From Nemertoderma westbladi (taxonomy: Eukaryota > Animalia > Xenacoelomorpha): DNA of 64,000 nt. The position numbers and the translations under genes are program-made. Below the pieces are notes generated by a model. It ran no database searches. It saw only the letters and a list, made by a program, of their open reading frames with translations, and was not told the origin of the DNA. The stretch is from contig JAUCBJ010008936.1 in NCBI GenBank assembly GCA_032718475.1, positions 62,001 through 126,000 on the forward strand, read 5' to 3'. Below are positions 2,514-44,558 of this stretch, piece by piece (the first letter of the stretch is position 1; each line of letters starts with the position of its first letter).

Positions 2514-4293
2514 CACTGGGGAACAATTTGAAAAAAGTTTCTGTTGAGTGGGATTTTTTAGCTGATTTCGACTAAACTTGACATGCTGAATTCAAAACTG
2601 CAGTCAGTTTTTGCCTAGCACGTCAAGTTTTTGCTCTACAGCTTAGAATCTGAGCAAGCAAAATTGAATTTTAGAATTGAAAATTGAATTGAATTTACTG
2701 ATAATATACAATTACAAACATCTAAGGTTAGCAACCAGTGCAGTGTAGCCTATTTTAGGAAACTTACATTTGTCCAACACTAAATCGTGACTTCAGTAAG
2801 TTCTCAGGTGGAGGGAATTTTAAACCTGGAACTCAATTACATACATTTCTTGTCATACCAGTAGCGGTAGTGGTAGGCCTACCGGTACAGTATAGTGCTA
2901 TAGTAGGAAATCTCTGTTCTAATTTTAATACAGCTGTTGTTAAGGCCCCCGATGTACCTTCTAAACATTAATCAAAGACCTGTGAATAACTGTTTGTTGG
3001 ATGCGATTACCTCGTTCATTACCTGGTTCATTGGTTCGTCGACTCTGTCACATATCTGCTCACAGTTGTTTCAGATCATGTCTGCTCCTTCTACTTCTCG
3101 TCGCAAATGCGTAAACAGTCCCGATTCATTTTGCTATATCTGCGGTAGCTTCACCATTCCAAGCCAAAGAACAAACATTAGCGCATTTGTTAAGCATGCA
3201 TATTTCACATATTTTAAGGTAAAACTCGGTGATCAAGACAAGCCTTGGGCCCCCGAAAAGGTCTGCAAGCAGTGTGTTGAGAGTTTAAGGATGTGGACCA
3301 AAGGAACTCGTGAAAAGTTGGCATTTGGTATACCAATGATTTGGCGAGAACAAAAAGACCATTGCACTGATTGGCCTCCAAGATCTGACCTCAAATCTGG
3401 AGATCCCAATATTCTATATGACCCACTTGTTGACAGGAGTAAAATAATATTCCCACCTCTGCACATAAAACTGGGTCTCATAAAGCAATTCGTCAAAGCA
3501 CTACCAACTGAAGGCGACTGTTTCAAGTATCTCACCTTGGTATTTCCTGGGCTGTCCATTGAAAAGATCAAGGCCGGTGTCTTTGATGGTTCACAGATTC
3601 GGCAGCTCACCAGGGATGAACATTTCATTGGGACCAAGTCGCAACTGGAGGAAAAAGCTTGGTTATCATTCAAAGATGTCATAAAGAACTTTCTTTGAAA
3701 TACAAGAGCAAAGAATCACGCTGAAATTGTCCAGAAACTATTGGATAGCTACAAAGCACTCGGTTGCAACATGAGCATAAAACTGAACTTTCTTCATAGT
3801 CACCTTGATAGCTTCCCGGAAAATCTTGGTGCTGTCAGTGATGAGCAGGGTGAACGATTTCACCAAGATTTGAAGGTCATGGAAGAGCGTTATCAGGGTA
3901 GGTGGGATGTACTTATGATGGCGGACTATTGCTGGAGCATCAAGCGCGATTGTCCAAAGATTGAACACTCAAGGAAAAGCTATAAGCGTAAATTTTTACC
4001 TTAAAACATACTTTCAGTAGCCATATATCCCTATAATAACCTTAATGTGGCTATTACCTAATTTCTAAACGTTGTAATGCAATGTATTTGATCTCTATCT
4101 ATGCAATAGTTAAAAACATTATATTTTATGTATCTTTTAACCGCAGAGTTTTTCTGATATTTAAAATAAAGCGAATGATCCTATAGTTCAAAAAGTTGTA
4201 GAGAAAAACTGATATCATTTTTGGATTCAGCAGCCCAAAATTAGTGTGTTGTTCCCCAGTGCCAGTTCCCCACAAAAATTGTGTTCCCCAGTG
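2514..4293 (+). mobile_element. Chapaev3-type (CMC) DNA transposon, internally deleted
   Basis: TIRs CACTGGGGAACA.. / ..TGTTCCCCAGTG plus imperfect subterminal inverted blocks; left flank TAA; encodes Chapaev3-like transposase pieces. Confidence 0.88.
3078..4004 (+). pseudogene. Chapaev3 transposase with large in-frame internal deletion and a premature stop
   Basis: CVNSPDSFCYICG..YFKVKLGDQDKPWAP..WREQKDHCTD is joined directly to WPPR..PPLHIKLGLIKQFVKAL; TGA at 3696-3698; then GCNMSIKLNFLHSHLD..SDEQGERFHQD..MMADYCW. Confidence 0.88.
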
Positions 4294-4829: not shown

Positions 4830-5455
4830 TAACTAATTTTGCGCTCAGACAAGAGTTGATGAATTAGACAAAATAAAGTGTCCGAATAACTTTCGCACCA
4901 TCGAACTTGACTTAGCTCAGGAATTTCTAGAACAAGATTTAGAAATGAACGCCCGGACGTTACATTCGCTAGAACAGGATTCGGCTGAACCTGGAAGTTA
5001 TGACATTGCTATTTCAGCCAATGAGAAGAGAAGCCCCCCCCCCCCCCCCCCCCCCCAATTGTAAGGAGGCAATTGCCGTAAAATCATCCGTCGCTCCCCA
5101 TCATCGGACAAAGTTTCTTTATCATTTGGTTTTAACGCTCGGGAGGTTTGTAACTGAGTGGGATGTTATGGAAGTTGCTTCCTTCCCTATAGCATTCCAG
5201 AATGCTGGGATGGTTGCTGATTTCAACAAGGGAAGAAGCCAACCTCATTAGTAGGCACTATGTAGAAGAACAACTGCAAACTTATTCTTTTGGCGCCAGA
5301 CAATTTTAGAAATATCTCAAAAATACCATTGCAGCAATTGATGATATATTGTTCTCCAATGGTCATTTATCTACAGATTTTCCTTCTGTTTCATACATTG
5401 ATCTACGTGAAGAATAATCTGAGCGAATTCAAACAATAGAGAATATAAGGAAAAG
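4830..5455 (+). pseudogene. Second Helitron RepHel fragment (Rep-to-helicase region), degraded
   Basis: VAPHHRTKFLYHLVLTLGRFVTEWDV..AFQNAG..RHYVEEQLQTY resembles the 'FL.H.LLS.GRF.TE.D..YI.EQL' block recalled from Helitron RepHel proteins; ends at aag|gt; same strand as 1031-1611. Confidence 0.55.
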
Positions 5456-5796
5456 GTACTTTGTGGATACAAACCATAGTGATCTACAGTAAGTAGGAAA
5501 ATGGTGATCCCCCAGAAAGACTCCTTTATCTTAGCCACTCTGGATGAGCCACTTGATTAGGATTATTATATTTTATATCAATTTGTGGCAAGTCGTAACA
5601 ATTTTATATTTACCCTAAACGTAAATTAATTCATTTGCATTTATTCTGTTGAATACATTTACTGAAATTTAAATTTACTGCTGCTGTATACAATATATTT
5701 GCTGGACTATATAGTTTATCATTTATATTTTGTTGCTAGGAAAATTTGGTGTCATCACTTCCAGCAATGACGACATTATTCGATTACTATATAAGC

Positions 5797-5826
5797 TGAG
5801 TTCGCTCGACCTAGTAGTAGTAGTAG
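5797..5826 (+). mobile_element. 30-bp 5'-truncated RTE-like LINE stub with (TAG)n tail
   Basis: tgagttcgctcgacctagtagtagtagtag flanked by 9-bp TSD TATATAAGC (5788-5796, 5827-5835); same 3' end as the insert at 14906-15008. Confidence 0.8.
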
Positions 5827-6117
5827 TATATAAGCCCAAGGTATTAGTTCAGTGTCGTTTTTCATAGTTTCAGTCTTCAGAATTACAATATTATTATCAG
5901 TCTTCATGCAGTCATTCAGAGTTCGCTTATCTGTTCTGTAGCATACTAGGCCATATACATCAAAACTAAATAAACTTCTGAATTATGTAATTATATTTCA
6001 TTTCTGTATTCTTTCTGGCATTCTCGCATGATGCCTGAGTAGAGACTCATCAGCCAGGGGGCCAACTGACGTGGAGCCCAGGAACAACAGCTGTAACGTT
6101 ACATAGTTGCAAATCAA

Positions 6118-9020
6118 GCATTGCAGAAATCTGCAACTGTGGAGCAAGATCTCCTATCATTATAATCATATGCCAGAATTTATCCAACCTTTATGTTCTT
6201 GATCGCATAAAATATAATACAAACCTTTCCAAGATGTATTTCTTGCTTTGGCCGTACATTGCCATCCTTGGAATGCATAATGAACTTGCCAAAGGAAGAT
6301 ACATCTTGGGGGTTAATATAATAATATTGTGATCTGTGTTGGAAGAAGAAATTGTAGCAATTGTCTAATTCCTCATTTTTTTTTTGTTTCTCTGTATATA
6401 CAGACTTGGTTGTCGGGATTAGTTCCCCATTGTAGTCGCAGATCACATCACCACATATGAAGGATTTGGTAGTTATAAGACACTGACCAAAAACTTCAGA
6501 GGGATGTGTCTCGACTTTGAGGTGTCCTAATGAGTGCTGGTGTTGGAAGAAGAAATTGTAGCAATTGTCTAATTCCTCATTTTTTTTTTGTTTCTCTGTA
6601 TATACAGACTTGGTTGTCGGGATTAGTTCCCCATTGTAGTCGCAGATCACATCACCACATATGAAGGATTTGGTAGTTATAAGACACTGACCAAAATTTC
6701 AGAGGGATGTGTCTCGACTTTGAGGTGTCCTAATGAGTGCTGACCTCTTTTATACACTTTGTATATATAGTGTTGCCTTTCGATGGTCTGCCGATGCCCC
6801 CAGTATGTTCTTAGATTTTTATGAGAGAGCGACTGCACTCTAAACCAGTGTGCAGAAGGGCATCCCGCAGCATTCCATCATCTGGGGTAATCTTTACACT
6901 GTGTGTTGGAGAGTATATGGCCAGAAGTTGCTCTTTGGCCTCTTTAAGCTGAATTACTGCATCCTTACCTTTCAATGGACTGGTCCACTGTCATTTGGAA
7001 GAAGATGCAGTCTTTGGACTTGTAGTTCCAGAAGTTCCTACTTTGGTATATACAGCTTCCTCTTCCACAAGTATAAGAGTTACCCCATCCATAATATGGT
7101 GGAAATTCTGGTAGCCATCAAAGATCTCAGAAATGAGCTCTGGCTGGTTGCTTTGTGACAGCAATTTAATAGATTCATGACCATCAAAGCTCTTAGTTGT
7201 GTCGAAAATGTAATTATGATCTCTCGTAACCACAGAGTGACAGATAAGATGCCAGCTTATCTCGAGTTTCTTGGCAAGATAGCTTAGAGGCAGCAGTCTC
7301 AACTATCTTCCAGATCTGAGTGGCACAAGGCTTAAACTCGAGATGGAGGCTTTCATGAATCCGCTCAATCTCCTGAGAGGGAGAGACCCCATAAAACTTC
7401 CCTCTACCATTGATGAACACATAGTTGCTATGTGAGACACCCGCTTGCTTTAGCATGCGCGGTCTAATCATATCGCAATAATGTTGAATCATCCTGTAGC
7501 GGGAGGACAACTGCAGCATTATTTGTTGCCTTTGTCTTATGGCCAGCAACCAAAATCAAGTGCTGCCTTGATTCTGACACAAAGGGCGGCTTATATGCCC
7601 GACGGAATTCCACCATCTTCATCTTTCCAGCAACACTAGGGCGTTGGTGCTCCCCAACTATGATAATGGCCATGAGGTACCGAACATAGAACGAATATAA
7701 TATGCAATCAATCCACCCTATGTGAAGTTTCCTCTAGGCCTCAATCACAGAAAGAAGGATTTTCTCATCCTTCACAAGAAACAGGGCATCTGCTGGAGTC
7801 TTATCATGAAACTCAATCATTGAGTTTAGCTCCTTCTGTCTCTCTACGGATGACCAAAGGGTGATATTTTTGTGGAAGCTCTTGATAGCCTTTCTGACTA
7901 AGGAGATCTTGGATTGTAGGTGAGATGATATTTCATCTGCACCAGTTGATCCAGATCTGAACTGAAAGAACCTCAGTAGGCACTTCAGGTGGCCATCTAA
8001 ACTTTCACCCTTTATGCCACATTTCTCATGCTCCTCTGCCATCACCAACTTCAACTGCCCAAGGTCACAGACTGACAGTTCTACAAAACCCTGATCAGTA
8101 GTGCCCAACCACCTCTGAAACTGGAATGCAATAGTAGCAACCGTGTTAAGGTTATGCTTGACATATTTTTGACTGTTTGATGTTGATCTGCCGCCATGGA
8201 GTCCTTCCATTTCTGGAGAACCTGTACATGGGTCGGATCAAACCTTAGGTCAAAATCATGTATAGCAAGCTTGCCCTTAACCGATTGCGCACCCCAGTCA
8301 TAGCCAGTTGTAACACACGTCCCTACCACCTCTTCTCAATCACTATCATCATCACTCTGGGGAGTTTAGGAGGTCGTATGATCTCTCCTTCACTATCAGC
8401 ATCATCTGAGGAAAACCAAAAACTCAAGTTCCTCCTATAACCTTTATCCTTAAGGACAGAGTCGCACCTTGCAAGGATGACTTGAACAAGGTGTGGTAGG
8501 GGAATGCAAGTTTATCGTTGAAGGTGATGCTGAAGGAATATCTACAGTAATCTGCCCCTCATTAAGGTCTCCCGTTGCCAATACCATTACCTGCCTGACT
8601 TCCTACGTTTCTATATTTTATAAAGTCATTGCCTCTTAATGATATAACTTTGTTTGGGACACCCTTATCAACTTTTTTACCTAGCCATAAAATATCCCAA
8701 TCAGACAATACTTCAGCCCCCTCCCCAACATTGTTTGAAACCATAATTTGCTTAACTACTGTATAAATATAATCTTCTAGATTATTGATGACCTTTGTAG
8801 AATTAGATTGGGACCATGCTTCTTTAAATTCTTGCATTCGTAGTTTGGATTCTTCCTTTCTTAAATTATGAACTTTCTGAAGATGTGTAGAGAGGTACTT
8901 CTGTGGCCTAGGGGGATCGCATATAGTGCAGTCGATTATATAGCGGATTGGTTTCGATGGAATTACTTTGGAGGGTCCAGTGCCAGTTGGGGCAGAATCA
9001 TCAGAATCAGAATAAGACAT
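6118..9020 (-). pseudogene. Tyrosine recombinase-SET domain fusion gene (C2H2 + YR + PR-Set7/KMT5A-like SET), multiply frameshifted
   Basis: N-terminal CTICD..HLQKVH zinc finger; YR motifs GEHQRPSV (R), VAGHKT (K), TQIWK (R to W), CHSVVTRDHNY (H/Y); C-terminal SET: GQCLITTKSF.CGDVICDYNGEL..CYNFFF..SFGKFIMHSKDGN..IIFYAIKNIKVG*ILAYDY. Confidence 0.8.
6336..6742. repeat. Recent 204-bp tandem duplication within the SET domain
   Basis: 6336-6539 is nearly identical to 6540-6742 (1-bp indel). Confidence 0.95.
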
Positions 9021-9069
9021 ATTAGATAAGAAAGAGTGGAGAGTGAAAAAAAAAGAAATAATAAATCAA

Positions 9070-9253
9070 ATTGCAGTTGAGGTTATAAAGTTAATAGAAC
9101 AATTCGTAGATCAAAGATAATACAGATTGATGTAGAAATTGAGTATATCGAAAAAATAATATTTATAGAAGAATGCAAATATTGCAGTTGAGTTGATAAA
9201 ATTCGTAGAACAATTCGTAGATCAAAGTAAATAGAGATTGATATAGAAATTGA
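9070..9253. repeat. 111-bp period duplication upstream of the YR-SET start
   Basis: attgcagttgag..tagaacaattcgtagatcaaag..gattgat.tagaaattgag at 9070 and 9181. Confidence 0.75.
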
Positions 9254-10514
9254 GATAGATAACTGAATTATTTAATTATTAGGTTATTTTTATGTACAAA
9301 TTTGAACTTCTGTCTTGACTTTAACACCCTGGTAGCTAAATGAATGGAAGCGGTGTTGCTGCAGGTATAAATCCTGCCTTTAAAATTACTTATTTTACCA
9401 ATTTTCCCAAAATACTGTATATTTAGTGATAAAGGACCAGTTACGGTATCATATTGATTTGTTTCTTACAAATTATTCTTTAGTAAAGGTTCTTACGCCA
9501 TCTTGTGCTATTACACCTATATTCGATCTAATTTCTGTTGTATGGCCTACTAAGCCTCAAATGGAATACGTGACGCTTATTGGCAATGCTCCTTCCTGAT
9601 AAAGCTAGTATATAAGTGCGGTTGTGCTATGATTGATTTTACTCTCTCTTTTTGGTATTGTTTGACAGAAGAAGTCGCACTGCCCATGCAGAGGCTTTAT
9701 TCCCCGGTCAGGTTTAACTGACTGGTGGTTATTACAGGCCAAATGTCTAAAATTAAAGAGTTAATAATTGAATTATAATTATTCATTGCTACATTGTATA
9801 TTCTACTGGTTTATTCAATTTATCTTTATTATTTGCTTAATATATCGCCGATATTATGTAATCAAGGAGGTTTTACACGCGCCACAACAGGTGGGTTGCA
9901 GTAACTAAGTATCAGTGATAATCTGGACAATTGTATCAGATTTGTGTGCTGTTATATCTCTGACTTACTAAATAATTAATATATGGCGATATTTCAGACC
10001 ATTAATGTAAGCAAAGCTCTCATTATTAATTGCATCACGATTGAGAGTTGTCACAAATTGAATACTGTAGCGATATCAATATAATTAGACCCGAAGACTT
10101 GTCTCTATACGTTTCCCCTAAAGGGAAACACAATCACCAGACTTGAGTTCTTACAGAATTAATTAGTCAGTCATTTGCTTGTTATACTGTGTTGTCACAC
10201 CCTCCCGGTATAGTGTCTCAGTCAAATACAATAGATAATCAAATACCGTATTGAACTAAGTGAAATATAGAGCAAATCAATGCATCGAAAGGAAAAAGGG
10301 CAAAGAAACAGATACAGTGAGCGGCCCTTGTTGACAGGTACACTAGCACAATCCCGTTTATTGTATCAGACCAGACATCTTGCCTTCAATTTTGCATGGT
10401 TTATTAAGTAACAGAAAAGAGTCAAAATATATGAAAATTGAGAGTGAAAGAACATAATTTACTAAAAGCACTAACACCCACAGATATTCCACTCACCAAA
10501 TGGGTCAAATTAAA

Positions 10515-10751
10515 AACTAAAATTAGTAACTAGGTACTAAAATTAGTAACTGGATACTAAAATTAGTAACTGGGAATGAAAATAGTAACTTACCATGTAC
10601 TGAAATTAGTAACTGGATAGTGAAATTAGTAACCGCGTCTTGAAATTAGTAACAGGGTACTGAAATTAGTAACTGGGTACTGAAATTAGTAACAGGGCCC
10701 TGAAATTCGTAACTGGGTACTAAAATTGGTAACCGGGTACTGAAATTAGTG
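10515..10751. repeat. 20-bp minisatellite (TACTGAAATTAGTAACTGGG)n, about 12 copies
   Basis: Directly visible tandem units with AAATTAGTAAC core. Confidence 0.92.
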
Positions 10752-11599
10752 TTTTTATACCTACGAGATTAGCACTACATTGGGGATTAACCAGACATTA
10801 TTGTAAATTACTGTTGTTAGATATATTTGCTATAAGCTAATAAGATAAAAGCATTGCGTTTTTTTACACATAATGCTAATATTATTCATATTATGATTAT
10901 AATATTAATAAATAGCGTTTTTACCCATTGTTATTCTGTAATATTATAAAACAAACCGCACCAATTTTGTTCAGATGTATTAAGTTATTGCATTTATAGA
11001 AATAACATTGTTTATATGGAAATTCTATGTAGGCCTATTACAAGATACCATGCATTTAATAACATTAAAATCATAATGTTTTAGTATTGATGTACTAATG
11101 TTAGAATAATAATGATAAAATAGTGAGAAACTAAATCAGGAATGCTATGAGAATGCTATGAAATAATTCCAATATTAGCTTAATGTTAGAATAACATTAG
11201 AATTGTAAGGGTGGGAAACCCACTAACTATTAGAATTCCAATGTTAAAATAACACTGATTAATATTGGTTACCGAATACTGCCGAAAGTGCACTTTTATT
11301 GCACAGGGTCCGAGCGCTTTGCCAAAAAAATTTAAAACTGGCATTAGTTTAACATTTGAATTTTAATATTTTATTATATGAATAAAGATGTTAATAAACA
11401 TTATTTTAATGTTGCTATGGTTTGCAGGGTAGAGGTTATGATTCAAAATTACCACAGCAACTGGGTGTTTCGACATAGCAACGGCTTCTCTAAACATTAT
11501 TAGACTATGGGACCGCTACCTACCCCTACTATATCGACTACTGCGGATTTAATGGACGCGGTACCATAGCAACACGGTGAAGCAAGTTAGAGTTACGTT

Positions 11600-11976
11600 A
11601 GTACGTTTTTAGTGTTTTATTGAACCCAAACAATGTAGATCCTGAGGACAGGGAAACAAGAATCCACGGTATTACAGAATTAGTAAGTGATATCTGTAAA
11701 CAGTATACACCAGGTCGGAATTTATCCCTTGATGAAGCATTACTACTTTTCAAAGGTCGGCTCGGATTCAATGTATTTATTCGCACGAAACGTTCCCGCT
11801 TTAGGATCAAACTATTTATTCTTTGTGACTCTAATGGGTATTTGGTTGTTGCAAGGGTGTATTTTGGGAAGAATGCCACAATACCCCAGATATTGGCAAC
11901 ACCACAGCTTCCACATAGTCGCTTTGTTACTTGATAAATCCGATTTATTGAAGAAAGGATACATTGTCCACATAGA
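11600..11976 (+). pseudogene. piggyBac (PGBD4-like) transposase, fragment 1
   Basis: YTPGRNLSLDEALLLFKGRLGF..IKLFILCDSNGY..YFGK..LLKKGYIVHI; contains the first catalytic D. Confidence 0.9.
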
Positions 11977-12265: not shown

Positions 12266-12589
12266 CTAGTTCAAGTCTAACTCATTTTCTATTTCTTGTA
12301 TTCCTGCAACAAATGCTGGTCTCGAGCACTTCTTCGAAAATTCGTGCCGATATTCCATACATGGAAACAAATAAAGACCCCATACATCCTTCACCCATGC
12401 GGCATCCTTTGATCCATAAAAGTAGACCCATAAACATTTACCCATCTTTAATCCCGGAGGATCGGCCATGGCTGGTGGAGCAGAAATACGACCAGGCCAT
12501 GGTGTATCTTTTTTGCGCATTTTCACCCACACCAGATCACCAATCCTCATCATTTGCGACTCATCTGACTCCAGACCAGAACTGGTCAA
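12266..12589 (-). CDS. Stand-alone PWWP-domain protein (intronless, about 95-107 aa)
   Basis: IGDLVWVKMRK..PWPGRI..WVYFYGSKDAAWV..LFP..F..GIQEIE is a complete PWWP fold signature; open ORF with AT-rich flanks. Confidence 0.8.
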   Translation of the reverse strand: MTSSGLESDESQMMRIGDLVWVKMRKKDTPWPGRISAPPAMADPPGLKMGKCLWVYFYGSKDAAWVKDVWGLYLFPCMEYRHEFSKKCSRPAFVAGIQEIENELDLN

Positions 12590-14905
12590 ATTACATTCCT
12601 CGTCAGAACTTTCTAAAATATGGATTACTATGGATGTTTAGGTTCAAATTAACTTTTATTGCTTAAATTGCTATTAAACAAGTCCAATATTTATTATATT
12701 AAATTATTATATAATTTTGTTTAAATTGTAATTTAAATTTTGTTAATCTACCGGTGATTACCACGGACGCAAGTTGGAGCCGATGAATGACCCGCCGACA
12801 ATACCCCCAGTATCGAGTCTTGCATCCCTCATAAGCTCATCGAAGGAACTCAAAAGGCTTTTACATGCGACTAGAATCATTGCAGTTACAACGGGTGAAT
12901 TTATTGTCATGTTTATTCTTTAATGTCATAACTCAACACACAGTTACTAAAATTAAAAATAATAGTATGTTGTAAATGTATATAACAATGTTCTGAATTT
13001 GTAATATAGAATACTAAATACGAAAGCTGTACCTGCAAAATAGTCTTGAGAAAAAGCAATCTACATTGAACGCAATCTATAGTTTTTCATTTTTTCAATC
13101 TGATATATTTATTATAGTGGTCATTTCGTGGCTAACCCTTAAAAGGTATTTTATATATGAAGATATTATAAAATATTTTCACACAATATATTGTATATTT
13201 ACAGATCAACATCGTCCAAGGATGCAGAGGGGCAGTGTGCAGGGGCACCTACTACGGTAGGCCGTGTCCCTGTTTTCGAATAGTGGACCCCGTTTGGGTA
13301 CTTAAGGCCGATGTCGTGCTTGAGGAAGTATTCGATAATGAGTCACGACATATCCGCCCTCATTATTTCTGCAGTAATGAGTTTACCTCATTATTCTTCG
13401 ATAAAGCGCACCTAGAAGTGAGTAATAAATAAATAGGAAATGTACCTTATGTGTAAAGTAAAGCACCAGTGTCTATTGTAACAGAAAACAAGTTGACTTT
13501 CAGTGTAATGAAAGAGTCTAGACATATAAAGTATATATCTTTTCTATTCTTCCCTATATTGATTTTACAGAGCTCTCTAATGTTAAAGTTTATTAGATAA
13601 AATATATTACTTTACAAATAGAATGTATTATGGTCACTCTTTGTGAATAAATAGTTATTAAGATATTATATTATATTATTATTATATTATTTACTATTAT
13701 AGATAAATAATATATAACATTATTTATAATATAATACAAAACTACAATACATTTGCTGTATTGAATCATATTAGTATAAACTAAAAAACTCACATGTTTG
13801 ACATTTTAGAACCTAATGTGTTTTTGGATAAAACTTATCATAATTACAAAAACTAATAGCAAAAATTAGAACTCAAGCTTTTGATTTATATTAATTAATT
13901 GAATTACTACATACAGTATGTTGAATTGTAATATTTATACAGTCCAGCTCACCAACAGAGTGCCATCGGATCCGATCTGAACCGATCGGATCCAACAGCT
14001 TCAAACACTTTCAGACAAACTCCAACAGTCCAACAACTTCAAACAGATTCAGACAGTTTCAAACAGAATCAGACAACTTCCAACAACCTGTCAATCACTC
14101 CACCCTCACTCAACCGCAACCCCAACTCAACTCCCATCTTCTTGCGCGCAGATAGAATGAAAGCGTTTGAAACTACTAAAGGAACTCCATTTATAAAGCC
14201 ACAATAACGACAGAGTGGACTGGCCACTGGCGGCGCCCTTGAACATTCACACTGTAACTTAAGCCGACCTGAAGGAACAGCCCATTAGTGAGGTCGGTAT
14301 TTCTCTTTTTCCTGCCGCTATCTTTGAATAACACAATAGCAGAAAGCTAACCAGTGGTCTACCCCCAATACAAGAAAGACAAGTTGGCTACCATTGAAAT
14401 GAACGGGGAATGGAATTCTTTGTTCACATACTAATGTTGCTTTGGGTTGGTCTAGAGCCATACAATAGAGCTTTACGGAAATACACTTCCAAAGAGCCAA
14501 GCAGTGGCGGTATAGGTCCAAAATGCCCATGTAGAATTTCTTCGAATAAGGCTCAATTTCTTTAAGTTACATTAATTAAAATACTGATAAATATATTTTG
14601 CTTTTTGCAGGAGGGACAGTATCCCCCTCTAAAGTTAATAATATAGTGTATGTAGATGTGTTAGTTATATCGTTGCGTTTATTTATATTTATACATATAC
14701 AGGTTTGGATATGATCTCTACTAGTTTGATTTTTGTTTTGTAAATTAATTAATTGTGCGGTTAATTTGTCAATCACAGCCTTAATTGGCTACATTGCTTA
14801 TTGTATGAATGAATATAATTAGTTATTAAGACATTATTTTAATTAGTATCTGGTGTGATTAGGTCTACCTTTTACATAACAACAGTACGTCAATGGCGGA
14901 TATAC

Positions 14906-15008
14906 TACTACTACTAAGTCGAGCGAACTTGGACAGTGGAAATGAGATCCTTCCAGGCTTCCCAATTCTCCATAGTTGTCGCAATTTCGTTTCTCCCAAG
15001 TTCAGAGA
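14906..15008 (-). mobile_element. 103-bp 5'-truncated RTE-like LINE with (TAG)n tail
   Basis: 13-bp TSD ATGGCGGATATAC (14893-14905, 15009-15021); minus strand encodes EIATTMENWEAWKDLISTVQVRST* followed by TAG repeats. Confidence 0.82.
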
Positions 15009-15111
15009 TGGCGGATATACATTACATCATAATATGGCATGGCAGTCACGTGAAAACAAGGGCCTTCACATTCCCAATTCTCTATCTAATCTATTATGGT
15101 TGTGCGTATGG

Positions 15112-18079: not shown

Positions 18080-20905
18080 TTATAAAAATCTGTTAAAACT
18101 GCAATATTTTAAAAGGTCTACATCCCGTGCTAAAATATTACTAAAAATATTAATGTTTGGGGCTGATGCAGCATTAGAAGGTAGGTCGTTCCACATACTA
18201 ACTATCCTATTACAAAAATATTTCTGACAAATTTGTAGGCGGCAAAAATTGTGTTGCAATTTATATTGGTGACCTCTAAGACCCCTTCGTGAAGCAAAGC
18301 TAAAAAAATCATCAAAATTCATTTGCACTGCACCGGTGATTATAGAGTAAACCTGTTTTAAATCAAACACATGACGTCTAACTTCGAGTGGTTGTAAGTT
18401 TAAGTACTCAAGTCTATCTAAATAAGGCACCATGGTTAATTTACATCTAAAAAATAATCTGCGCGTAAAATATCTCTGTACGTGTTCGATCAGATCTATA
18501 TGTCCTTTGGTAAAAGGAGACCAAATTACTGTACAATATTCCAATAAGGGACGCACGTAAGATTTATAAGCACAAATTAGGGCTGCCATATTACGAGTAC
18601 GAAAACATCTAAAAATCATGTTGATTACTTTAGTTGATTTCAGAGCACGCTCATGGCAATGTTTATTAAATTTAAAATCAGAAGAAATCGTAACTCCCAG
18701 ATCCTTACAATCATCCTCTGCTTTAACAAGTTTACTATCTAGAAAATATTGCTGTTGAGGGTTATTGTAACCTAAATAGAGCACTATACATTTGTGTGGA
18801 GCGATATTCAACTGCCATTTATTAGACCATTCTGTGATTTTGTACAGGGACTGTGAGATCAGTAAGTGGTCGCTGGATGGCGCATATATTTTGACGTCGT
18901 CCGCAAATAGTTTACACGATAACCCTAAATTAAAAATATCCGGTAAATCGTTAATAAAAAGCACAAATAAAATTGGACCTAGTACGCTACCTTGTATGGT
19001 GACCGACGTAACTGGACAATAATCCGAGAAACTACTACCAACTAAAATACGTTGTGATCTATATGCGAGAAAAGCCTTTAACCAATAAAATAAGTCACCT
19101 ACTATACCGTAAGAAGAAAGTTTACATAAAAGTTTTTGGTGCACAACAGAATCAAAGGCTTTCGCAAAGTCTATGTAGATTACATCAACAGTGCACTTTC
19201 TATCCAATAATTTAATCCAATCCTTTGTACATTCTAATAGCTGGGTACATGTAGACTTATTTTTTAAGAAGCCATGTTGGGCCTTATTAATTAATTTGTT
19301 AGTAAATAAGTAATCACACAAATCTTGTTTAATACACTGCTCCATAATTTTACACGCAATACAAGTCAATGAAACGGGTCTGTAGTTATATGGGTCACTC
19401 GAGTTTCCTTTTTTGTACAACGGGACAATAATAGCTGTAGACCAAATTGAAGGAAGGGCATGTGATTTAAAAGAAATATTAAAAATAACAGATAACGGTA
19501 AAGATAAAACTGACGCTAAATTACTGAATAAAATGCACGGAATACCGTCAGGCGTACGACTTGTTTTAGAACCTAATTTACGAATAATTGAGAAAACACG
19601 ATCAACTGAAAAATCGACTTTAGAAATATATACAGATTGCGGGACCCTCCGCGTAAATGTAGGGCAATCGTTATTATCAATATTAAAATTGTCTGACAGA
19701 ACCTGAGCGAAAATATCAGCCTTGACGGCATCATCTACAATTGTGGCACCATTAAATGAAAGAGGTGAAATTCCCTGTCTAGATTTGCACTTTAAGTTTA
19801 CGTAATTAAACAAAACATTCGCCTTTCCACTGTTTAGGATTTTATATTCTCGTAAACATTCAGATCGAAGAATTGCCTCTGACAGTTCCTTACAACAACG
19901 GTTGTAATCTGATTTACCAATCTCTGTGTGGCGCCGGCGCCAAAGTAACTTTTTCTTTCATTGTAGTGCGCGAATGTGATGTGGGTACACCTTTTTCTTA
20001 GTGTTTAGTAGTTTGTATGGTACAAATTTATCAACACCGTCTTTAAGTACTGTTGAAAAAACGTTCCAAAATGCATCAATCGTACTGCACGAGTCAAAAT
20101 TGAGGTGCCAATTAATGATCGAAATGTAATGGGAAAATCCTACAAAATCAGCATTTTTAAAATCGTAAAAACCCAAATTGTTAACTGGAATTAAAATGTC
20201 TGGTCCTAAAGTATAAAAGTTTACTATTGAGTGGTCACTGGTTGAAAAAGTATGCCCTACTTCAACATCAGACACAATTGATTCGTCAGAAACTAAAATT
20301 ATATCTAAAATATTATCCTCACGAGTGGGTCTTGTAACCAGTTGATCAAAACCATTTTCTAAAATAAATAAAGAAAACTGTTCGTAGTTGTGGCTTGATG
20401 GGTAATTAAAATCCTTCCAGTTAAAATCAGGCAGATTGAAATCGCCTACCACGAGACAAGGTTGGGTGACGTCGCACAGCGATGAGATACATTGCCTCAG
20501 TTTGCAGTCCAGTTCCAACTTCTCCGCTCTCTCTTCTCCGGTTTCAGAATCTGGGGTTCTGTAGGCGCAAACCATACGGAAAGGAGTCGACCCGAGAAAA
20601 TCGACAGCGACCACCTCGAGTCCATCCAGGTTGTTAGGGAGAGGAACATTCACACAACGAATGTTGTTGCGCACCAGTATTGCCACCCCGCCGCCAAGAG
20701 AGGGGCGATCTTTTCGAAAAACCTGATGCTGTTTGAAACCCACCATTGAATCAGTGACCGATCCGTCCAACCAAGTCTCGGTGATAGCGAGGACGTCGTA
20801 ATTAGAGGAAACGATCAAATGTTTGAGATCATGTATCTTGTTTTTCAGCGATCTAGAGTTCAGTAGACAACATTTCAGGCGCGGATCTGTATTGCCTCCT
20901 CCCCT
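18080..20905 (-). pseudogene. CR1 ORF2 (APE endonuclease + reverse transcriptase) with one in-frame stop
   Basis: LNSRSLKNK, ITETWL, GDFN, SDH; TGA at 19958-19960 in the same frame as the RT part; QHGF, DFAKAFDSV, QGSVLGP, FADD, KDLGV, VRPLLEY, LRGH. Confidence 0.93.
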
Positions 20906-20907
20906 CT

Positions 20908-22131
20908 CTAGTTTTCCTCTTGGTCGGCAGTAGTGTTGTTTTCTTCGGTTGTCGCCTGTGGTGGAGATTTAGCGGCGGGCGTTGGCAATCTCCACTTCCT
21001 ATCGCGTTTCCATTTCCCATTCTCGTCCGGGGTATACCGCCAAATAGACCCGTCTTGCCGTAAGCTGTAACTCTCCGAGTCGAGATCAGCCGCTAAGTTT
21101 AGTTGTTGCAACGTTTTCTTCCGTTCTCTAAACAGCTTCAGTTGCTCCTTAGATTGACTCGGTCTGATTTTTAGGTTTTTGATTATTTCCGGTACAGTTC
21201 CAGAACTCTTTGCTTCTTCGAAACCCGACCGAAAGTTCCGCGCTTCGTTTTCCGAAGTGAAAGTAACTTTCACAATGCGCTCCTTATCATCGGTTTGTCG
21301 CCCCAGCCGTTGAAACTCGTTTATCGAAGAAGAGTTTACATTGGATGCCACACAGACATCGTTTACCGCTTGTCTGTCGGCCGCCAGGTTCGCTGATTCA
21401 GGCAAACGAGAGATTATCACCTCTCTTTTCAGTTTCTCTGAAGATAACGCTTCTTTAACTGAGGACTCCACAACTTGCGACAGCACAATGTTATTCCGTG
21501 CCGAGTTCCTATATCCGCGGGTTCGAGCCTTCCGGCTTTTCTTTTTGTTTCGTCGTGTTTCCCATTCTCCCTCGCCGTCGCTGACTTCCTCGCTCTCCTC
21601 CGCTGACAAGTCGGAGTCACAAACTACCCCGAGATGTGCTTTAACGGAACCGATTTCCGCCACTACTGATTCGATGAGTTTCGTTTGATTTTCGACAATG
21701 AGTTTTAACTCGTTTACAGTTGATCGATTGCTCATCGCCTCCTCCTCTGCCGCAGTGGCCACTTGAATGAAGGTTGCACACTTGCTGCAAAACCATTTAA
21801 ATTGGCTGTACCTGTTAAACTTTTCGAGTAATTCGGAAACAAGTTTATACGACGGAAGTGAAATGTTCTCACATTTGGCATGGAACCAAACCTTACAACC
21901 GTCACATGTAATACCGTTGTCTTGATCCTGTACCAGGAAGGAACATCGTCCGCAATTATATGTGCTTAGGTCGGCTACGCTGCCGGCACGTGTACTGGGT
22001 TGTGCAGATTTGTGGACTATTCCGCCACCAGCCGCTCTAGGAGAAGTTGTTGGCGTTGCAAGTCGAGCAGAATTTCGAGGAGGAACAGTAGGTTGGTGAA
22101 TAGTTTCTTTGGGTCGGCGCGTTGTCGCCAT
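20908..22131 (-). CDS. CR1 ORF1 protein with PHD finger
   Basis: CGRC..CDGCKVWFHAKC..WFCSKC PHD finger, coiled coil, RLG..IVKVTF RRM-like region; directly upstream of ORF2. Confidence 0.88.
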   Translation of the reverse strand: MATTRRPKETIHQPTVPPRNSARLATPTTSPRAAGGGIVHKSAQPSTRAGSVADLSTYNCGRCSFLVQDQDNGITCDGCKVWFHAKCENISLPSYKLVSELLEKFNRYSQFKWFCSKCATFIQVATAAEEEAMSNRSTVNELKLIVENQTKLIESVVAEIGSVKAHLGVVCDSDLSAEESEEVSDGEGEWETRRNKKKSRKARTRGYRNSARNNIVLSQVVESSVKEALSSEKLKREVIISRLPESANLAADRQAVNDVCVASNVNSSSINEFQRLGRQTDDKERIVKVTFTSENEARNFRSGFEEAKSSGTVPEIIKNLKIRPSQSKEQLKLFRERKKTLQQLNLAADLDSESYSLRQDGSIWRYTPDENGKWKRDRKWRLPTPAAKSPPQATTEENNTTADQEEN

Positions 22132-22791
22132 TCCCGGTAAAACAGTTCAACAGTTTGTGATATTTAAAACAAACCAAATTTAAAAATTCAGTACGGTGCA
22201 GGTATGTGCGTATTCAGTAATGATGCAATACAAAGTTATACAAAACGGTACTGGTACAAAAAACAAAAGCAAACGTTACATAGCAAACGTCTTTAGAACG
22301 AAGAATATCCACATGGACACAGCAATATTATGTTAAATAAAATCTTAGTACAGCTATTTCCCTAATTTCACCAACCTTTATTTTACAGATGCTAGGGGTG
22401 TCTACAGGTAACTTCTACTAATTTTCACCAGTAACTAAATTTAATTTTGCAATTTTTCAGATAACAAAATATTCAACTGGGTTCGAACTCGGGACTGTTG
22501 AAATAACCCCGATCCCGATCCCGTAAAATAGGGATTACGAGAGCGATAATCCCGATCCTGGAAATCCTGGTACATAGCAATTATTTTAGTTTAAATATCG
22601 CTAAATTTGCTTATTTCTGGTTTAATGTGGAAGTAACAGATCTGTTTGGATCATACTATCAATCCCCAGCCATTGATTATAACTTGGTGATAGCGAAATA
22701 ACCCAACTGTTGTAGCACAAATTCTACCCAGTTCAGTCTGGTTGATTTAAACTGTCTGGTCTAGCAATGTTTGTGCGACTATGATAAGAAG

Positions 22792-23741: not shown

Positions 23742-26392
23742 TCATTAATTACAATTTTTCTAATTCTTCATAATATTTTTATAAAAATACATCCCTTAAA
23801 ATCAAATCATTACAACTTATGATACATTAATAAATTGTTGATTAACACAGGACCACCATTCCTCTAATCCAAATATATTGTAGTATAATACAGTATAATT
23901 GTAAGGCTTTATACCTATAATATACTGCTCCATACAAATAGCCTAAGAGAGCGGCATTACCGGTAGCAATTTCCGCGGACATAAAAAGATAAAATCAGCG
24001 GACATAATGAGTAAATTCAACGGACAAAAAAAAATATTGTGGATCTAAAGCACTGTATCCTAGTGGACCAGTGAATCCTTTGACAATCAGTGAATAACTA
24101 CTCCCACAGCCCACCTCCCATCTCTCTCTCACAAACTCAGCTGTCCTACCAAACTAATGTGTTCTATACTATCTCCCTATAGAACCTGTTGTATTACATC
24201 TAACCAATATTAGTTAACTTCTCTCTCTACCTTCATGAAGGGCCTATGAATTTCGATGGTTACACCAAATAATTCCACACTGCTACTAATGACTCACCAG
24301 CAGATAGCTTTTCCAGTGCCCTTCAATGATTGGCTAAACTCTTGGCTATCATTTGGTTACATGTTATGCCTGCCTGCCTATAAGCAAAACAACAACAATA
24401 TTCTGTACATTATTACTGTTCTAGGTTTGGGTATTGCGTTATTTTATATATATAGCTAATGGTCTGAATGTAGATCAATCGCACGATCGGACCACTTTTC
24501 TTCATATTTGTTTTTAAGCCTAAGGCAGTAAGGCAGGTACAACTGTAGCATACTGTAACCCGTATTTATGTTAATTAATTGCTTTGATTTTAGGTTTAAG
24601 CATAAGTACTTATGTAATTATATAGTACTTATGTAGTATATAGGCCTGTCTACCTGTAGCTTCTATGCTATATCAGTTCAGTACATAGTAGGCCAATACT
24701 TAGGCTGTTAGGCCACCAGTATTGGTTATGTGGTTTGGAAGCAGTGGAATTGTGCACTGGAAAGCACCCAACCACCCAGACCACCCACCGTGGTCTTGTG
24801 GTACTTTAAATTAATCTAATTAATAATAAAACTAATAAATTAATCATAATAATTAATTTATCTAATCTAAAGCCCCGGTTTCCATGATTTAACATAGCTA
24901 CAGTACTATAGCTATAGTACTATATACTAATACTTATATATAATATAGCTAAATTGCAAGTAATGCTAGCTGTAGTAATACTACAGCTGCAATAGTACTA
25001 CTATGCTAATTAATACTACAATTAATAGTAATACTAACAGTTGGCCGTGTCTCACAGCTACCTCCTACTGTATTTCAGATACTCTCATCCCTGTTTCACA
25101 ACACTACTACCGCTAAATGTGGAATGCCCCAGTACTGGTTCTGCTACTGCAGTACCTACAAAATCTATATATATAATTATATCAATCAAGAGATTAAATA
25201 ATATTTTTATAATCTGAGGCGAATCGGAGCAGCACTTAGGCTGCTTAGCGATAGTCCAGGCATTATTAAAAAAAATGGAAATAAAAACCAATACGAAAAA
25301 AAAGGCAATTAAAAACTGGTATTGAAGAAAAAGATAATAAAAACCAATAAGAAAAACGGCAAGTAAAGTAAAGTAAAAACTGATAGATTGCACAACCACA
25401 TGACCCCCTTGGTTTGGCCGCTGGTTCACTCTAAAAAAACTTCTTTGTAAAATTGCAAAGAAAATCTTGTTTGATCTTTTTTACTAGATTTTCTTTGGAA
25501 AAGTTTCAAGGATTTTATCAGATTACCAAGATGAAGTCAATTTGACAATATTTATCTAGGCATCTGGATCTTGTTGAAAATCATCTTGGAAATGTTGGCG
25601 GTTTGTTACCTACACAAGCAGACTTTCATACAGTACCGGCACTGTATCACTGCAGCCAGCCATGCAGTCAAGTCAGGCTGTCAGGTGGACACAGGGCAGC
25701 AGGGTAGTGCAGTACAGCAGTTCAGCAGTACAGTGTGAGTGTAGTCTGGCAGTAATGCCATTTCTGACCTTTACTGGTACCGGTACCGGTAATACTTCTC
25801 CGTACCGGTAGCGGTAATATACCAGTATACTGTGACGCCTACTGCTGTACTGGTAATACCATACTGCCATAACAGACATAGGGCAGTAGGGCCTACTTAC
25901 AGACTTAATACTGTTAGACTGTAGGCACTAATACCGGTAGGCCTACTGTAATAGCAGAGCTAATTCCAGAATACCGTACGTACCGGACCGGTCTGCCACT
26001 GCCGGTAGGCTGTCAGGCTGTACCCGTACCGGTTACCGATCTAGCACCTAGCTGCCTAGCCTGCTAGCGGTACGGTACCGGTCAGCCGGTAGTTATGCAG
26101 TTACTGACTTCTGGGAACACTTCTGACTGACTGACTGGACACTACTGACTTCTGACTGGGAAAATTGAACTTCTCCTCGACTGCTATATAGATTAGCTAG
26201 GCCTATGTATATATACCTGTATATACCTATATGGCCTATACAGCTATATAGGCCTAATATGCCAGTAATGCTTAGGCCCTTATATAGGCCTAATACTTTT
26301 ATTCTCATTCGGCATTCATTTGACTTTCATTTGGTATTCTTTTAATAATTCACGCTTTAGCAGCTTCATTAAAATTGTTATAAGACTTTAGG

Positions 26393-28957
26393 ATGCTATC
26401 CTGTATCCACTGTTCTTTGAGCTTGAGAACATTGACCTCTTATCGTAATCATTTGAGGGAATTTCATAAAATTCGAGTTCATCAAAGGTTTAAGATCATC
26501 TGCGGCCAGGATGGATGCTCATTAGATTTCTACTTCTTTCAATCGTTAAGTAGACACATAAAATCCAAACATTCCCAGTTGCTTTCAGCAGCTGGAAATA
26601 ACCAAAACACACCTCTTACTCTTCCACACTTTGGCCCACCACTACAACCTGATGCAGATTTGGGAAATGATGACGATACTATCCCTACTGCTGCTGCTAC
26701 AGATGATATTTCAACTCCGATAGTCCAGTTAGAAAAAATGCTTAATAGTAAGATAGAAAAATCAATTTCAATAAATGAGGAATTTAATGTTGATGCTCTA
26801 CTGCTGGTATCAAAACTTAAAGGGAGCCCGGTTATTCCACAATCATCAATTACAGAAATTATAAATAACATTGAAGAATGCTTCTGCTATCCACTTTCAT
26901 TAATCCGTGAAGCATTGGAACATATCTTAATAAAGGCAAATCTTTCAGAATCTGACCTTAATGATTATAACCTTGTCATAAAGGCATTACATTTTTATAG
27001 TCGTCCTTTTATAGGTATTAAAACAGATTATAAGCAGAATAAAGTTTTGGAAAAGTTGAACTGCTACATTCCCCCAAAAACATATACCATAAATCAAACA
27101 ATGGTGGCTGTCCCTGGCCACAATCCAGAAGACATTGTTTATAAAACTAAACTCCTTAATGGAAGTTACATTCCTCTTGAGCCATTACTTCAAAAGTTTT
27201 TATCTATTCCCAATGTATTCAACACAATAATTCAACACCTCAAGGGAGACAGCAATGGCAGAATAACAGATTTTAAAGATGGCCAATTATGGATTCAAAA
27301 CCCAACTCGTATGTTGCATGAGAAAGATCCTTATTCAATTGTCATTCCTGTTTTTTTTTACCAGGATGACTTGGAAGTTACAAATCCTCTTGGTTCAAAG
27401 ACCACTATTCATAAAATTGGAAATGCCTATCTCACTATTAAAGGGTTACCGCCTCGTTTTAATAGCAGGTTATCTAACTTACTACTAGCTATAATGCATT
27501 ACGCAACTGATAGAACACAGTTTGGTAACAAAGCCACATTTTCAATTCTTATTGATATGCTGGGATCATTAGAAACGAAAGGGTTTTTGTTAACTCACGA
27601 AGGTAAATCTTATACAGTGTATGTGGTTTTGTCCATGGTCCATGGTGACAACCTTGCTGTCAATTCAATGCTTGGTTATATTGAAGGTTTTACAGGGAAT
27701 TATTCCTGTCGTGCTTGCCTGTGTCACCGTGGTGACTTTGTTAAAACATTTTATGAACAAAACTCACTTAATCGGCATTGTGATAACTATCAAGAACATG
27801 TAAATAGAGATAATCCATCTGAGACGGGTATTAAAGCAGAGTGTTGCTTTAACTCACTCCCTTCATACCATGTGTACAAAAATCAAACTTTTGATATCAT
27901 GCATGATATACTAGAGGGTGTTTGCCAATATGTTATTCCAAAATGTTTGTTTAAATTGATTTTTGAATTTGAGTTCTTCACAACAAATGATCTAAACAGA
28001 CGAATTAAGGGTTTCAAATTTGATCATACTTCTATTCCTCCTCTATTTCATGAAGATAAATTGAGAAAGCAATTGTCAATTTCTATAACCGCTTCTCAAA
28101 TGCTAAATTTCTGTTTAGCATTTCCACTGTTGGTCGGAGATTTTGTTCCTTCAGGCAACATTTACTGGATTATCTTGCTAAAAATGAGGGAGGTTTTGCT
28201 TTTTTGTTTGTCTCCAAGCTTTGTTAAACAAGATCTCGAACTTTTTTCAACTGAAATAGCAGAATTTTTGGAAATATATGTTGGAACATTTGAACTCCAG
28301 AGGCTTCAGCCGAAATTCCATAATATGATCCACTATCCTGAAGCAGTGAGACAGGCAGGCCCCTTGGTATGGATGTGGTCACTAAGATGTGAAGCTAAAC
28401 ATCGCGATGCAAAAAGAACTGCAGCTGTTGTTTGTTGTTTTAAAAATATTGTGAAAACATTATCCAAGCAACATCAATTATCATTATCATATAAATTGCA
28501 CAGTGGCAGTGGTATTGGTGTTGGTGATGAAGTAGTTATAAAGATACCGGTGGCAACAACCTTTGCAAATCTCGAGAATGGTTTAGCTTTTTCAACACTT
28601 ATAGACAACTATGGAATGGATAGGGATATAATTTCTTCTACTAGTATCGATATTTGTTCTGTTCGGTATACTATTGGACATGTCCTCTGTCATGATATTA
28701 TTAACAATGATTTGAATTTTCCAGAATTCGGTTTTATTTGCCACATATTTGTTTTAGATAATGGAGATTTTGTATTTATTTGCAGCAAATTAACTACAGT
28801 AAATTACTCTGAACACCTACAGGCTTTTGAAGTTGAGAAATCATATCGAAATTCATATTTCATTATTGGTTCCATAGATTCTCTTATTAGTCCATGGCCA
28901 TTACATCTCCACTCTAGCCATTCAAAGTTTTATGTTGCTTTGCGTCATCGATTTTAA
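26393..28957 (+). CDS. EnSpm/CMC-type transposase, 854 aa
   Basis: N-terminal C2H2 pair; YQDDLEVTNPLGS..HKIG, GDNL..GY.EGF..CRAC, DIMHDILEGV, PKFH.MIHYP..GP..W.LRCEAKH; uninterrupted. Confidence 0.92.
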   Translation: MLSCIHCSLSLRTLTSYRNHLREFHKIRVHQRFKIICGQDGCSLDFYFFQSLSRHIKSKHSQLLSAAGNNQNTPLTLPHFGPPLQPDADLGNDDDTIPTAAATDDISTPIVQLEKMLNSKIEKSISINEEFNVDALLLVSKLKGSPVIPQSSITEIINNIEECFCYPLSLIREALEHILIKANLSESDLNDYNLVIKALHFYSRPFIGIKTDYKQNKVLEKLNCYIPPKTYTINQTMVAVPGHNPEDIVYKTKLLNGSYIPLEPLLQKFLSIPNVFNTIIQHLKGDSNGRITDFKDGQLWIQNPTRMLHEKDPYSIVIPVFFYQDDLEVTNPLGSKTTIHKIGNAYLTIKGLPPRFNSRLSNLLLAIMHYATDRTQFGNKATFSILIDMLGSLETKGFLLTHEGKSYTVYVVLSMVHGDNLAVNSMLGYIEGFTGNYSCRACLCHRGDFVKTFYEQNSLNRHCDNYQEHVNRDNPSETGIKAECCFNSLPSYHVYKNQTFDIMHDILEGVCQYVIPKCLFKLIFEFEFFTTNDLNRRIKGFKFDHTSIPPLFHEDKLRKQLSISITASQMLNFCLAFPLLVGDFVPSGNIYWIILLKMREVLLFCLSPSFVKQDLELFSTEIAEFLEIYVGTFELQRLQPKFHNMIHYPEAVRQAGPLVWMWSLRCEAKHRDAKRTAAVVCCFKNIVKTLSKQHQLSLSYKLHSGSGIGVGDEVVIKIPVATTFANLENGLAFSTLIDNYGMDRDIISSTSIDICSVRYTIGHVLCHDIINNDLNFPEFGFICHIFVLDNGDFVFICSKLTTVNYSEHLQAFEVEKSYRNSYFIIGSIDSLISPWPLHLHSSHSKFYVALRHRF

Positions 28958-44550: not shown

Positions 44551-44558
44551 ACCCACCA

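Follow-up and report, generated by a model that had tools for sequence, protein, structure and literature searches.

A stretch of 64,000 nt of Nemertoderma westbladi DNA (contig JAUCBJ010008936.1, positions 62,001 to 126,000; hereafter the window) was analyzed, which is repeat-rich animal DNA throughout and in which open reading frames (ORFs) labeled by eye as resembling long interspersed nuclear elements (LINEs), long terminal repeat (LTR) elements, and DNA transposons adjoin one another. Near its left end lies a decayed gene on the minus strand, which extends from an ATG at 9020 to a TGA at 6116-6114 (about 950 codons) and combines a C2H2-like finger, a likely tyrosine recombinase (YR), and a SET domain similar to that of KMT5A/SETD8/PR-Set7; it is referred to here as the YR-SET gene (Table 1). 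On the path with the fewest breaks (stop codons or frameshifts) through 9020-6118, the minus strand is interrupted 11 times compared to 24 times for the plus strand, whereas shuffled versions of the same region showed 32.3 ± 3.2 breaks and none of 200 had 11 or fewer. A preliminary description of this DNA had proposed a single decayed minus-strand gene with the order finger, recombinase, KMT5A-like SET, and both the order and the strand were confirmed, with reservations concerning the recombinase. The section from the catalytic His to the start of the SET domain (7240-6742) contains three breaks versus 5.6 ± 1.4 in shuffles, 19 of 500 of which were as low. Its GC content of 0.40-0.47 is as in the coding parts, while most flanks range between 0.22 and 0.37. 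Directly upstream of the start codon there is a 111-nt tandem repeat (9070-9254), whereby joints in other copies suggest that the number of its units varies.

Table 1. Features of the YR-SET gene and its surroundings in the window.
Feature	Position	Strand	Details
N-terminal open stretch	8562..9020	-	153 codons from ATG 9020
C2H2-like finger	8868-8930	-	Motif alone; within the N-terminal open stretch
Degraded, partly acidic linker	8180..8561	-	Three frame switches; near 8.57 and 8.48 kb, indels of other copies join the open frames
Probable core-binding (helical) part of the recombinase	7734..8179	-	Inferred from position; ends at a premature TAG
Tyrosine-recombinase catalytic domain (likely)	7210..7733	-	Two frameshifts; motifs, spacing, relative P0003
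YR-SET linker	6743..7209	-	About 155 codons; TGA 6990-6988; frameshift near 6.82 kb
204-nt tandem duplication	6336..6742	.	First half of SET; 99% matches
KMT5A/PR-Set7-like SET domain, C-terminal	6114..6524	-	Pfam PF00856; PDB KMT5A alignment
Candidate polyadenylation signal	5640..5645	-	Inferred; only AATAAA/ATTAAA hexamer in 5451-6120
30-nt insertion (5797-5826) of (TAG)n-tailed high-copy repeat	5788..5835	+	Between 9-nt direct repeats
HDGF/HRP3/LEDGF-type PWWP ORF, stand-alone	12266..12637	-	Own stop; 3.2 kb upstream of the YR-SET gene

The last 137 codons of the gene matched the Pfam profile PF00856 with an E-value of 3.8e-10, or 1.3e-12 when the duplicated part was included. Comparison with PDB sequences yielded KMT5A/SETD8 for the best 14 of 35 sequences (E-values 7e-16 to 1e-14), followed by EZH2 with 2.5e-6, and the SET domain is thus nearest to KMT5A among the PDB sequences. 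Residues conserved in the alignment to KMT5A are the "EY" Tyr, the Cys-Tyr and Phe within the i-SET, the NHS His, and the two YDY Tyr residues. The reading frame is closed by a premature TAA (6182-6180) four codons ahead of YDY, and an exact tandem duplication of 204 nt (6336-6742), which is absent from the preliminary description, doubles the first half of the domain.

The recombinase part was compared with a second, intact ORF of 708 aa on the minus strand of the window (44559-46685), which contains two zinc-finger-like motifs and is referred to as the 44.6-kb gene. This gene matched the Phage_integrase profile with an E-value of 2.7e-4, which is below the curated cut-off, as well as an NCBIfam integrase profile (7.7e-4), and no SET domain was detected in it by the Pfam scan. 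In the decayed gene, the putative catalytic codons are Arg 7643-7641, Lys 7538-7536, His 7239-7237, and Tyr 7212-7210. The codon spacings in the decayed and the 44.6-kb gene, respectively, are 35 and 31 (Arg-Lys), 75 and 78 (Lys to the position of the second Arg), 24 and 26 (from there to His), 9 and 9 (His-Tyr), and 144 and 144 (Arg-Tyr), and the His position of the canonical HxxR is a Thr in both. The motif HSxxTxxxxY, which was taken from the 44.6-kb gene, occurred at the expected place in 22 of 20000 shuffles. Thus, the tyrosine-recombinase identity of 7210-7733 is likely, judged from motifs and their spacing. The direct comparison of the two recombinases gave no significant similarity, and they therefore belong to different families. 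The motif layout had been described as the same as in an intact gene at 44.6-48.9 kb; the layout held, but the unbroken ORF covers only 44559-46685, and a gene reaching 48.9 kb would need splicing. The Atlas neighbours of the 44.6-kb ORF are animal and include one Myb-bearing cluster, and a tandem array of 57 units of 30 nt (42856-44551) abuts its stop codon.

Homologue searches gave one relative of the recombinase part. The word-index search found no relatives of the decayed YR stretch and none of the 44.6-kb YR, and when it was run with the alignment A2 it returned P0003 alone. The exhaustive search gave three matches; the PRC-barrel protein P0001 and the repeat P0002 were discarded as spurious, and P0003 was kept. 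P0003 is a fragment of 204 aa with 45% identity over 65 aa (pairwise E-value 1.7e-11, library E-value 9e-4). In the Atlas it is placed among animal clusters without names (0.97), and the protelomerase, DUF3435, and NDC10 families (0.86-0.87) are weak leads. Among the viral contigs, locus L001 proved to be a short chance match of the YR piece within a phage gene, locus L002 has the same 26-residue match, and A2 retained none of 19 candidates there. The metagenome scans gave 0 of 91 and 0 of 265. Two AlphaFold models had a predicted local distance difference test score of 39, one of them being all-helical at 7734-8179; they were too poor to be used as evidence, and neither was a single fold search that gave nothing at E ≤ 0.001. 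The C2H2-like motif occurred in 2 of 2000 shuffles, whereby the pattern was written after sight of the sequence, and it had no Pfam match. Overall, it is likely that the finger, the likely recombinase, and the KMT5A-like SET domain were originally parts of one protein.

The assessment of other copies is based on contigs from public runs of this organism (X1, X2, and X3, from two samples and two studies); these runs contain roughly half of the words found in 5.7-14.9 kb. The region 5835-9330 is represented by 145 contigs in X1, of which 38 are at least 99%, 51 are 95-99%, 38 are 90-95%, and 18 are less than 90% alike. The claim of repetition is drawn from such distinct contigs covering the same places and not from depth. 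The sequence is repeated, and in several diverged versions of it the junction of linker and SET is retained. In sample S1 at least three versions of this junction are present (X1 record 2, X1 record 1, and an X3 joint at 6485-6822). X1 record 1, which is about 90% alike, runs from 6982 to the SET end at 6162 and carries 195 other letters in place of 6523-6762, where the window carries the duplication. The more diverged X2 record 10 runs from 7195, directly behind the catalytic Tyr, to 6742, and a loose end in X2 leads in frame into the SET N-terminus. Among the 12 of 22 indels that were listed, 10 lie inside the gene at nine sites, two of which are in-frame and seven frame-changing. Five of these seven (near 8.57, 8.48, 8.18, 7.50, and 6.82 kb) coincide with frame switches of the window copy, and their lengths join its consecutive open frames, so that at these sites the frame stays open in other copies. 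The switch near 8.18 kb is missing from most other copies, and in X2 and X3 the frameshift near 6.82 kb is absent from the greater part of the depth, where the frame runs into SET. The majority substitutions are distributed over codon positions 1, 2, and 3 as 9, 16, and 13 (38 of the 40 listed, 110 in all), which is the pattern expected of neutral decay.

Given these findings, we consider it fairly probable that the YR-SET gene is what remains, as a dead copy, of a likely Crypton-type DNA transposon whose recombinase was fused to a KMT5A-like SET domain, and that local monomethylation of histone H4 at lysine 20 (H4K20me1) maintained an open state and expression of the element. In analogy to Cryptons, the recombinase would bind the ends of the element, excise it as a circle via a phosphotyrosine link, and insert it elsewhere. 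A Tyr at the Phe/Tyr-switch position of SET domains leads to the transfer of a single methyl group. This Tyr is kept in the window copy, and the SET domain may have monomethylated H4K20 both on the element and at the target site. According to passages of PMC8897848, host SETD8 uses a basic extension at its N-terminus to reach nucleosomes and produces H4K20me1, its specificity being tied to the Phe/Tyr switch; in the fused protein, the DNA binding of the recombinase would replace this anchor and bring the SET domain to nucleosomes. The most likely purpose would be that the chromatin of the element remained open to transcription in the germ line or in early embryos. Evasion of silencing, as had been suggested, is an ambiguous purpose, since H4K20me1 is linked to accessible chromatin, yet can be converted to the repressive H4K20me3 (passages of PMC10368294). 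Steering of repair at the insertion site would be a second possible use, as the choice between 53BP1 and BRCA1 repair is steered by H4K20 methylation (passages of PMC8897848).

Several observations weigh against this reading. The preliminary description had named the NHS and Tyr residues of the SET domain for a check of intactness: both Tyr of YDY are present in the window copy, but the Asn of NHS is replaced by Met (MHS) and the GxG motif is eroded (GQC for GRG), i.e., the motifs for binding of S-adenosylmethionine are not intact. Moreover, the alignment to KMT5A stops short of the last residues of the domain, and methyltransferase activity and H4K20 specificity are uncertain for this copy. 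A profile search for Phage_integrase together with SET, which had also been proposed, succeeded for SET (PF00856) and failed for the decayed recombinase, which had no match among Pfam, PHROGs, NCBIfam, or PDB profiles and in which the Trp (TGG, 7312-7310) of a Thr-x-x-Trp motif replaces the second catalytic Arg. No full-length YR-SET relative was found by the word-index, exhaustive, viral-contig, or metagenome searches. Among the contigs of X1-X3, none covers both the catalytic Tyr and SET, no intact copy was seen, and two of the seven listed frame-changing indels would break the frame in other copies. The four stops and the catalytic codons are untouched by the 40 of 110 substitutions that were listed; thus, other copies may share the TGA of the linker, the Trp, and MHS, or these may be native. 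It also has to be considered that sequencing depth does not equal copy number and that the samples may be pools. As far as mobility is concerned, neither termini nor empty or filled insertion sites of the element were seen among the available contigs. The proposal of a mobile element with its own chromatin writer is partly supported, namely in that the three parts lie in series in one gene and in the repeated, diverged versions with their linker-SET junction.

The 3' edge of the repeat may be located near 5.63 kb, judged from a contig with no or one difference in X1 and X2 that ends at 5625 and from the adjacent AATAAA. The 5' edge is hidden within high-copy repeats at 9.4-11.6 kb. As termini, inverted arms of 27 nt at 5799-5825 and 14903-14929 were tried and rejected, since each is the end of a separate high-copy (TAG)n repeat. 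The two (TAG)n insertions have direct repeats of 9 nt (5788/5827) and 13 nt (14893/15008), respectively. Contigs of X1, X2, and X3 cross 5795-5869 without the 30-nt insertion, and in X1 and X3 the right arm occurs with 47-50 different flanks. The (TAG)n at 5812-5826 was likewise rejected as a microsatellite target, because it has its own 9-nt direct repeats and is absent from contigs that continue on both sides. Hence, of the termini whose definition had been called for, the inverted arms were ruled out and a candidate for the 3' edge was obtained. Between 5.4-11.7 and 11.7-15.1 kb there is no other inverted match above chance and no end pair of the TTAACCC type of piggyBac. The repeats at 14893-15020 and 5788-5835 belong to a very high-copy family with the shared end AGTTCGCTCGAC-(TAG)n and target duplications of 9-13 nt, which resembles truncated non-LTR insertions.

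Upstream of the YR-SET gene, the PWWP ORF matched PF00855 with an E-value of 1.8e-12 and, among PDB sequences, HRP3 best (2e-8), as well as LEDGF/PSIP1 (9e-6). It is possible that this ORF is the second gene of the YR-SET element and encodes a candidate partner. None of the contigs in X1-X3 joins the PWWP ORF to the YR-SET gene, and the region between them contains high-copy repeats and a piggyBac transposase fragment on the opposite strand (11602-11934, plus strand; PF13843, E-value 2e-12). In a further run, X4, a PWWP piece is present and the YR-SET gene is uncovered, but X4 covers only 15 of 30 bins and is therefore uninformative on linkage. The summed depths of both genes are of a similar order in X1-X3, which was not used as proof. 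Host LEDGF tethers the integrase of human immunodeficiency virus (HIV) to chromatin. H4K20 methylation in fission yeast requires Pdp1, a PWWP protein (passages of PMC10553808). The role of Pdp1 and the tethering of HIV integrase by LEDGF make a pairing of PWWP and SET attractive: a LEDGF/HRP3-type PWWP protein might tether the recombinase-SET protein to methylated nucleosomes. However attractive, an element that reaches from around 5.6 kb past 12.6 kb and uses a PWWP reader and a SET writer to choose and mark its own insertion sites is doubtful. In the surroundings of the PWWP ORF, a GC-rich, exon-like stretch without Pfam match is located at 13205-13418 (plus strand, TTTACAG acceptor and GTGAGT donor), and a second small GC-rich island lies at 12750-12920. 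High-depth repeat blocks are found at 9363-11617 and 13873-14774, including an array of 11.6 units of 20 nt (10516-10750), whereby the second block contains 10-nt repeats (13991-14085) as well as a palindrome near 13966-13993. These two blocks are possibly the ends of another element around the PWWP ORF.

Other explanations of the YR-SET gene were weighed against the same data. It might be that the fused transposon protein was the same, but that its SET domain was natively degenerate and bound histone tails or methylated the recombinase or a host repair factor. That MHS for NHS takes two base changes would fit this idea, as would GQC for GRG and the unmatched C-terminal end, and a non-histone target would have a parallel in host SETD8, which also methylates p53, PCNA, and Numb (passages of PMC8897848). 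On the other hand, the Tyr residues, the Cys-Tyr, the Phe, and the His aligned to KMT5A are kept, and with neutral decay of the copy the losses may be private to it, so that we regard a natively degenerate domain as unlikely. The products of one element could also have been separate, with the TGA at 6990-6988 ending the recombinase and SET being encoded by another ORF or by an exon subject to alternative splicing. Such an arrangement is compatible with the linker stop, which is not among the differences listed for other copies, with the openness of the linker, which is modestly beyond chance (19 of 500 shuffles), and with about 160 additional letters just upstream of SET in one diverged copy, which could be an intron. 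However, these letters are in frame with SET, the linker has the GC content of coding parts, the frame of most X2 and X3 depth continues past 6.82 kb into SET, and single proteins with both SET and DNA_BRE_C, a tyrosine-recombinase domain, exist in Hydractinia (PMC10368294). Separate SET and YR frames in intact copies would contradict the fusion; in the part of this check that the contigs allowed, the fusion was not refuted, although the stop at 6990-6988 was not seen to differ. Separate products appear rather unlikely.

It is quite improbable that the YR-SET gene was not mobile by itself, but was carried as cargo by a larger element of virus-like or composite nature, which included PWWP and the small ORFs at 11.6-13.4 kb, or a member of a segmentally duplicated host family. 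The missing termini and the small GC-rich ORF islands upstream would be explained in this way, a SET gene is carried by adomaviruses (passages of PMC13696692), and X1 and X3 both contain a nearly identical defective version, in which they share the deletion near 7.5 kb. Yet no capsid, polymerase, or helicase was detected among 20 ORF pieces from 4.8-15.0 kb that were scanned with Pfam, a scan that decayed or unfamiliar genes could escape, there was no true relative in viral contigs, and the high-copy repeats and the piggyBac fragment separate PWWP from the YR-SET gene. Nested repeats are abundant in the window, and a processed KMT5A pseudogene could in principle have landed behind a dead recombinase by chance. 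We consider this highly improbable, because the SET domain is only distantly KMT5A-like and has none of the KMT5A upstream region, neither a poly(A) tail nor a target duplication surrounds it, and diverged versions, which are about 85-90% alike, keep the junction, whereby X1 record 1 and X2 record 10 largely refute the idea.

Elsewhere in the window, two transposase-like ORFs without significant Pfam match are located on the plus strand at 2907-4004 and 35826-36953. ORFs of 857, 233, and 294 aa at 26384-31198 (plus strand) had no Pfam match either, and by eye we take them to be a zinc-finger transposase of the EnSpm/Mirage type with accessory ORFs. Two LINEs labeled as CR1-like by eye lie at 18080-22146 (minus strand) and 49665-52571 (plus strand), the first with an ORF1 containing a PHD finger (E-value 5e-8). 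At 57708-63434 (minus strand) there are long ORFs, among them ORFs of 455 and 693 aa without clear Pfam family, with a CCHC knuckle upstream and pieces at 62-63.4 kb that resemble a BEL/Pao integrase by eye. Rfam gave no matches for 4-16 kb.

With regard to known systems, the transposon of the preferred reading is closest in description to Cryptons, i.e., DNA transposons reportedly described by Goodwin in 2003, and it was compared to them by description, with no Crypton sequence aligned. Cryptons are excised as a circle by their YR and then re-inserted, and the animal groups CryptonA and CryptonI lack a C-terminal domain behind the YR (passages of Kojima and Jurka, 2011, PMC3212892). The likeness consists of a likely YR without reverse transcriptase (RT) that is repeated in an animal genome and for which no terminal inverted or long direct repeats were found. 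Short direct repeats at the ends and copies dispersed over different sites were further marks used for Cryptons, and in this respect the several diverged versions in X1-X3 were observed. With respect to the R-H-R-Y set of Cryptons, the window gene has Arg, Lys, His, and Tyr spaced as in the 44.6-kb YR, with Thr for the His of HxxR and Trp for the second Arg. The SET domain that follows the YR at the C-terminus sets it apart from CryptonA and CryptonI. CryptonV is said to have been described by Kapitonov and Jurka in 2012 in Repbase Reports. For this group, which is named in passages of PMC8869645, PMC4455052, and PMC5753468, specific insertion of some families into microsatellites was used as the mark, and no microsatellite target was seen for the window element. 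DIRS retrotransposons carry a domain of the DNA adenine-methylase type beside RT and RNase H (passages of PMC13465315 and PMC3537659) and thus are likewise YR elements with a methyltransferase-like domain, whereas the window gene has a protein-lysine SET domain and no RT. Neither the RT nor the RNase H that accompanies the YR in DIRS and Ngaro retrotransposons was found among the scanned pieces of 4.8-15.0 kb, and the nearest RT-like ORFs, identified by eye, lie at 15.2-16.5 kb, beyond a separate high-copy repeat. The same 20 pieces gave no match to a capsid, packaging, or replication gene as expected for adomaviruses or Polintons, and the SET gene of adomaviruses is free-standing (passages of PMC13696692).

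The architecture is surprising and, as a mobile element, seems to be undescribed. No description of a YR-SET mobile element was found in a literature search whose coverage did not include Repbase Reports, bioRxiv supplements, and most subscription journals, nor is one given in passages of PMC9406493, PMC3537659, and PMC13465315. That such elements are poorly characterized, as the preliminary description had stated, was borne out, since the S8 table of PMC10368294 was the one place found in print with the combination, without calling it mobile. In this work, an expansion of "KMT5A-like" genes is reported for Hydractinia, Hydra, and sea urchin (Ayers et al., 2023, PMC10368294), and the table assigns SET_SETD8 together with DNA_BRE_C to 3 of 24 listed Hydractinia genes, namely HyS0030.151, HyS0112.3, and HyS0196.2, which are activated at 4 h of development. 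The proteins are treated as host H4K20 methyltransferases there, and the main text does not mention recombinase, integrase, or Crypton (PMC10368294). They are like the window gene in that a SETD8-type SET domain is part of long proteins, three of them with a tyrosine-recombinase domain, but in these three SET is N-terminal to the recombinase, whereas it is C-terminal in the window gene. If YR-SET elements are a real class, a DNA transposon would bring a histone-marking enzyme into animal germ lines and thereby bypass host silencing, a route for which the literature search gave no description. Some of the dozens of "extra" H4K20 methyltransferase genes that Hydractinia and sea urchin switch on when their genomes are activated (PMC10368294) would then be transposon genes and not host regulators. 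The window copy itself is dead, and its value lies in a further lineage, in a SET domain on the other side of the recombinase, and in a candidate PWWP partner. KMT5A/SETD8/PR-Set7 (PDB 5teg and 4ij8) is the best structural-database match and shares the active-site Tyr residues and the His, but it differs from the window SET domain, which is fused to a recombinase, has MHS for NHS, is broken by a stop and a duplication, and is part of a gene in which the basic N-terminal nucleosome anchor was not seen. SETMAR/Metnase is a domesticated single-copy primate gene that combines an H3K36-type SET domain with a mariner (DDE) transposase. It resembles the window gene in the joining of SET to a transposition enzyme, whereas the SET domain of the window gene is located inside a repeated YR element.

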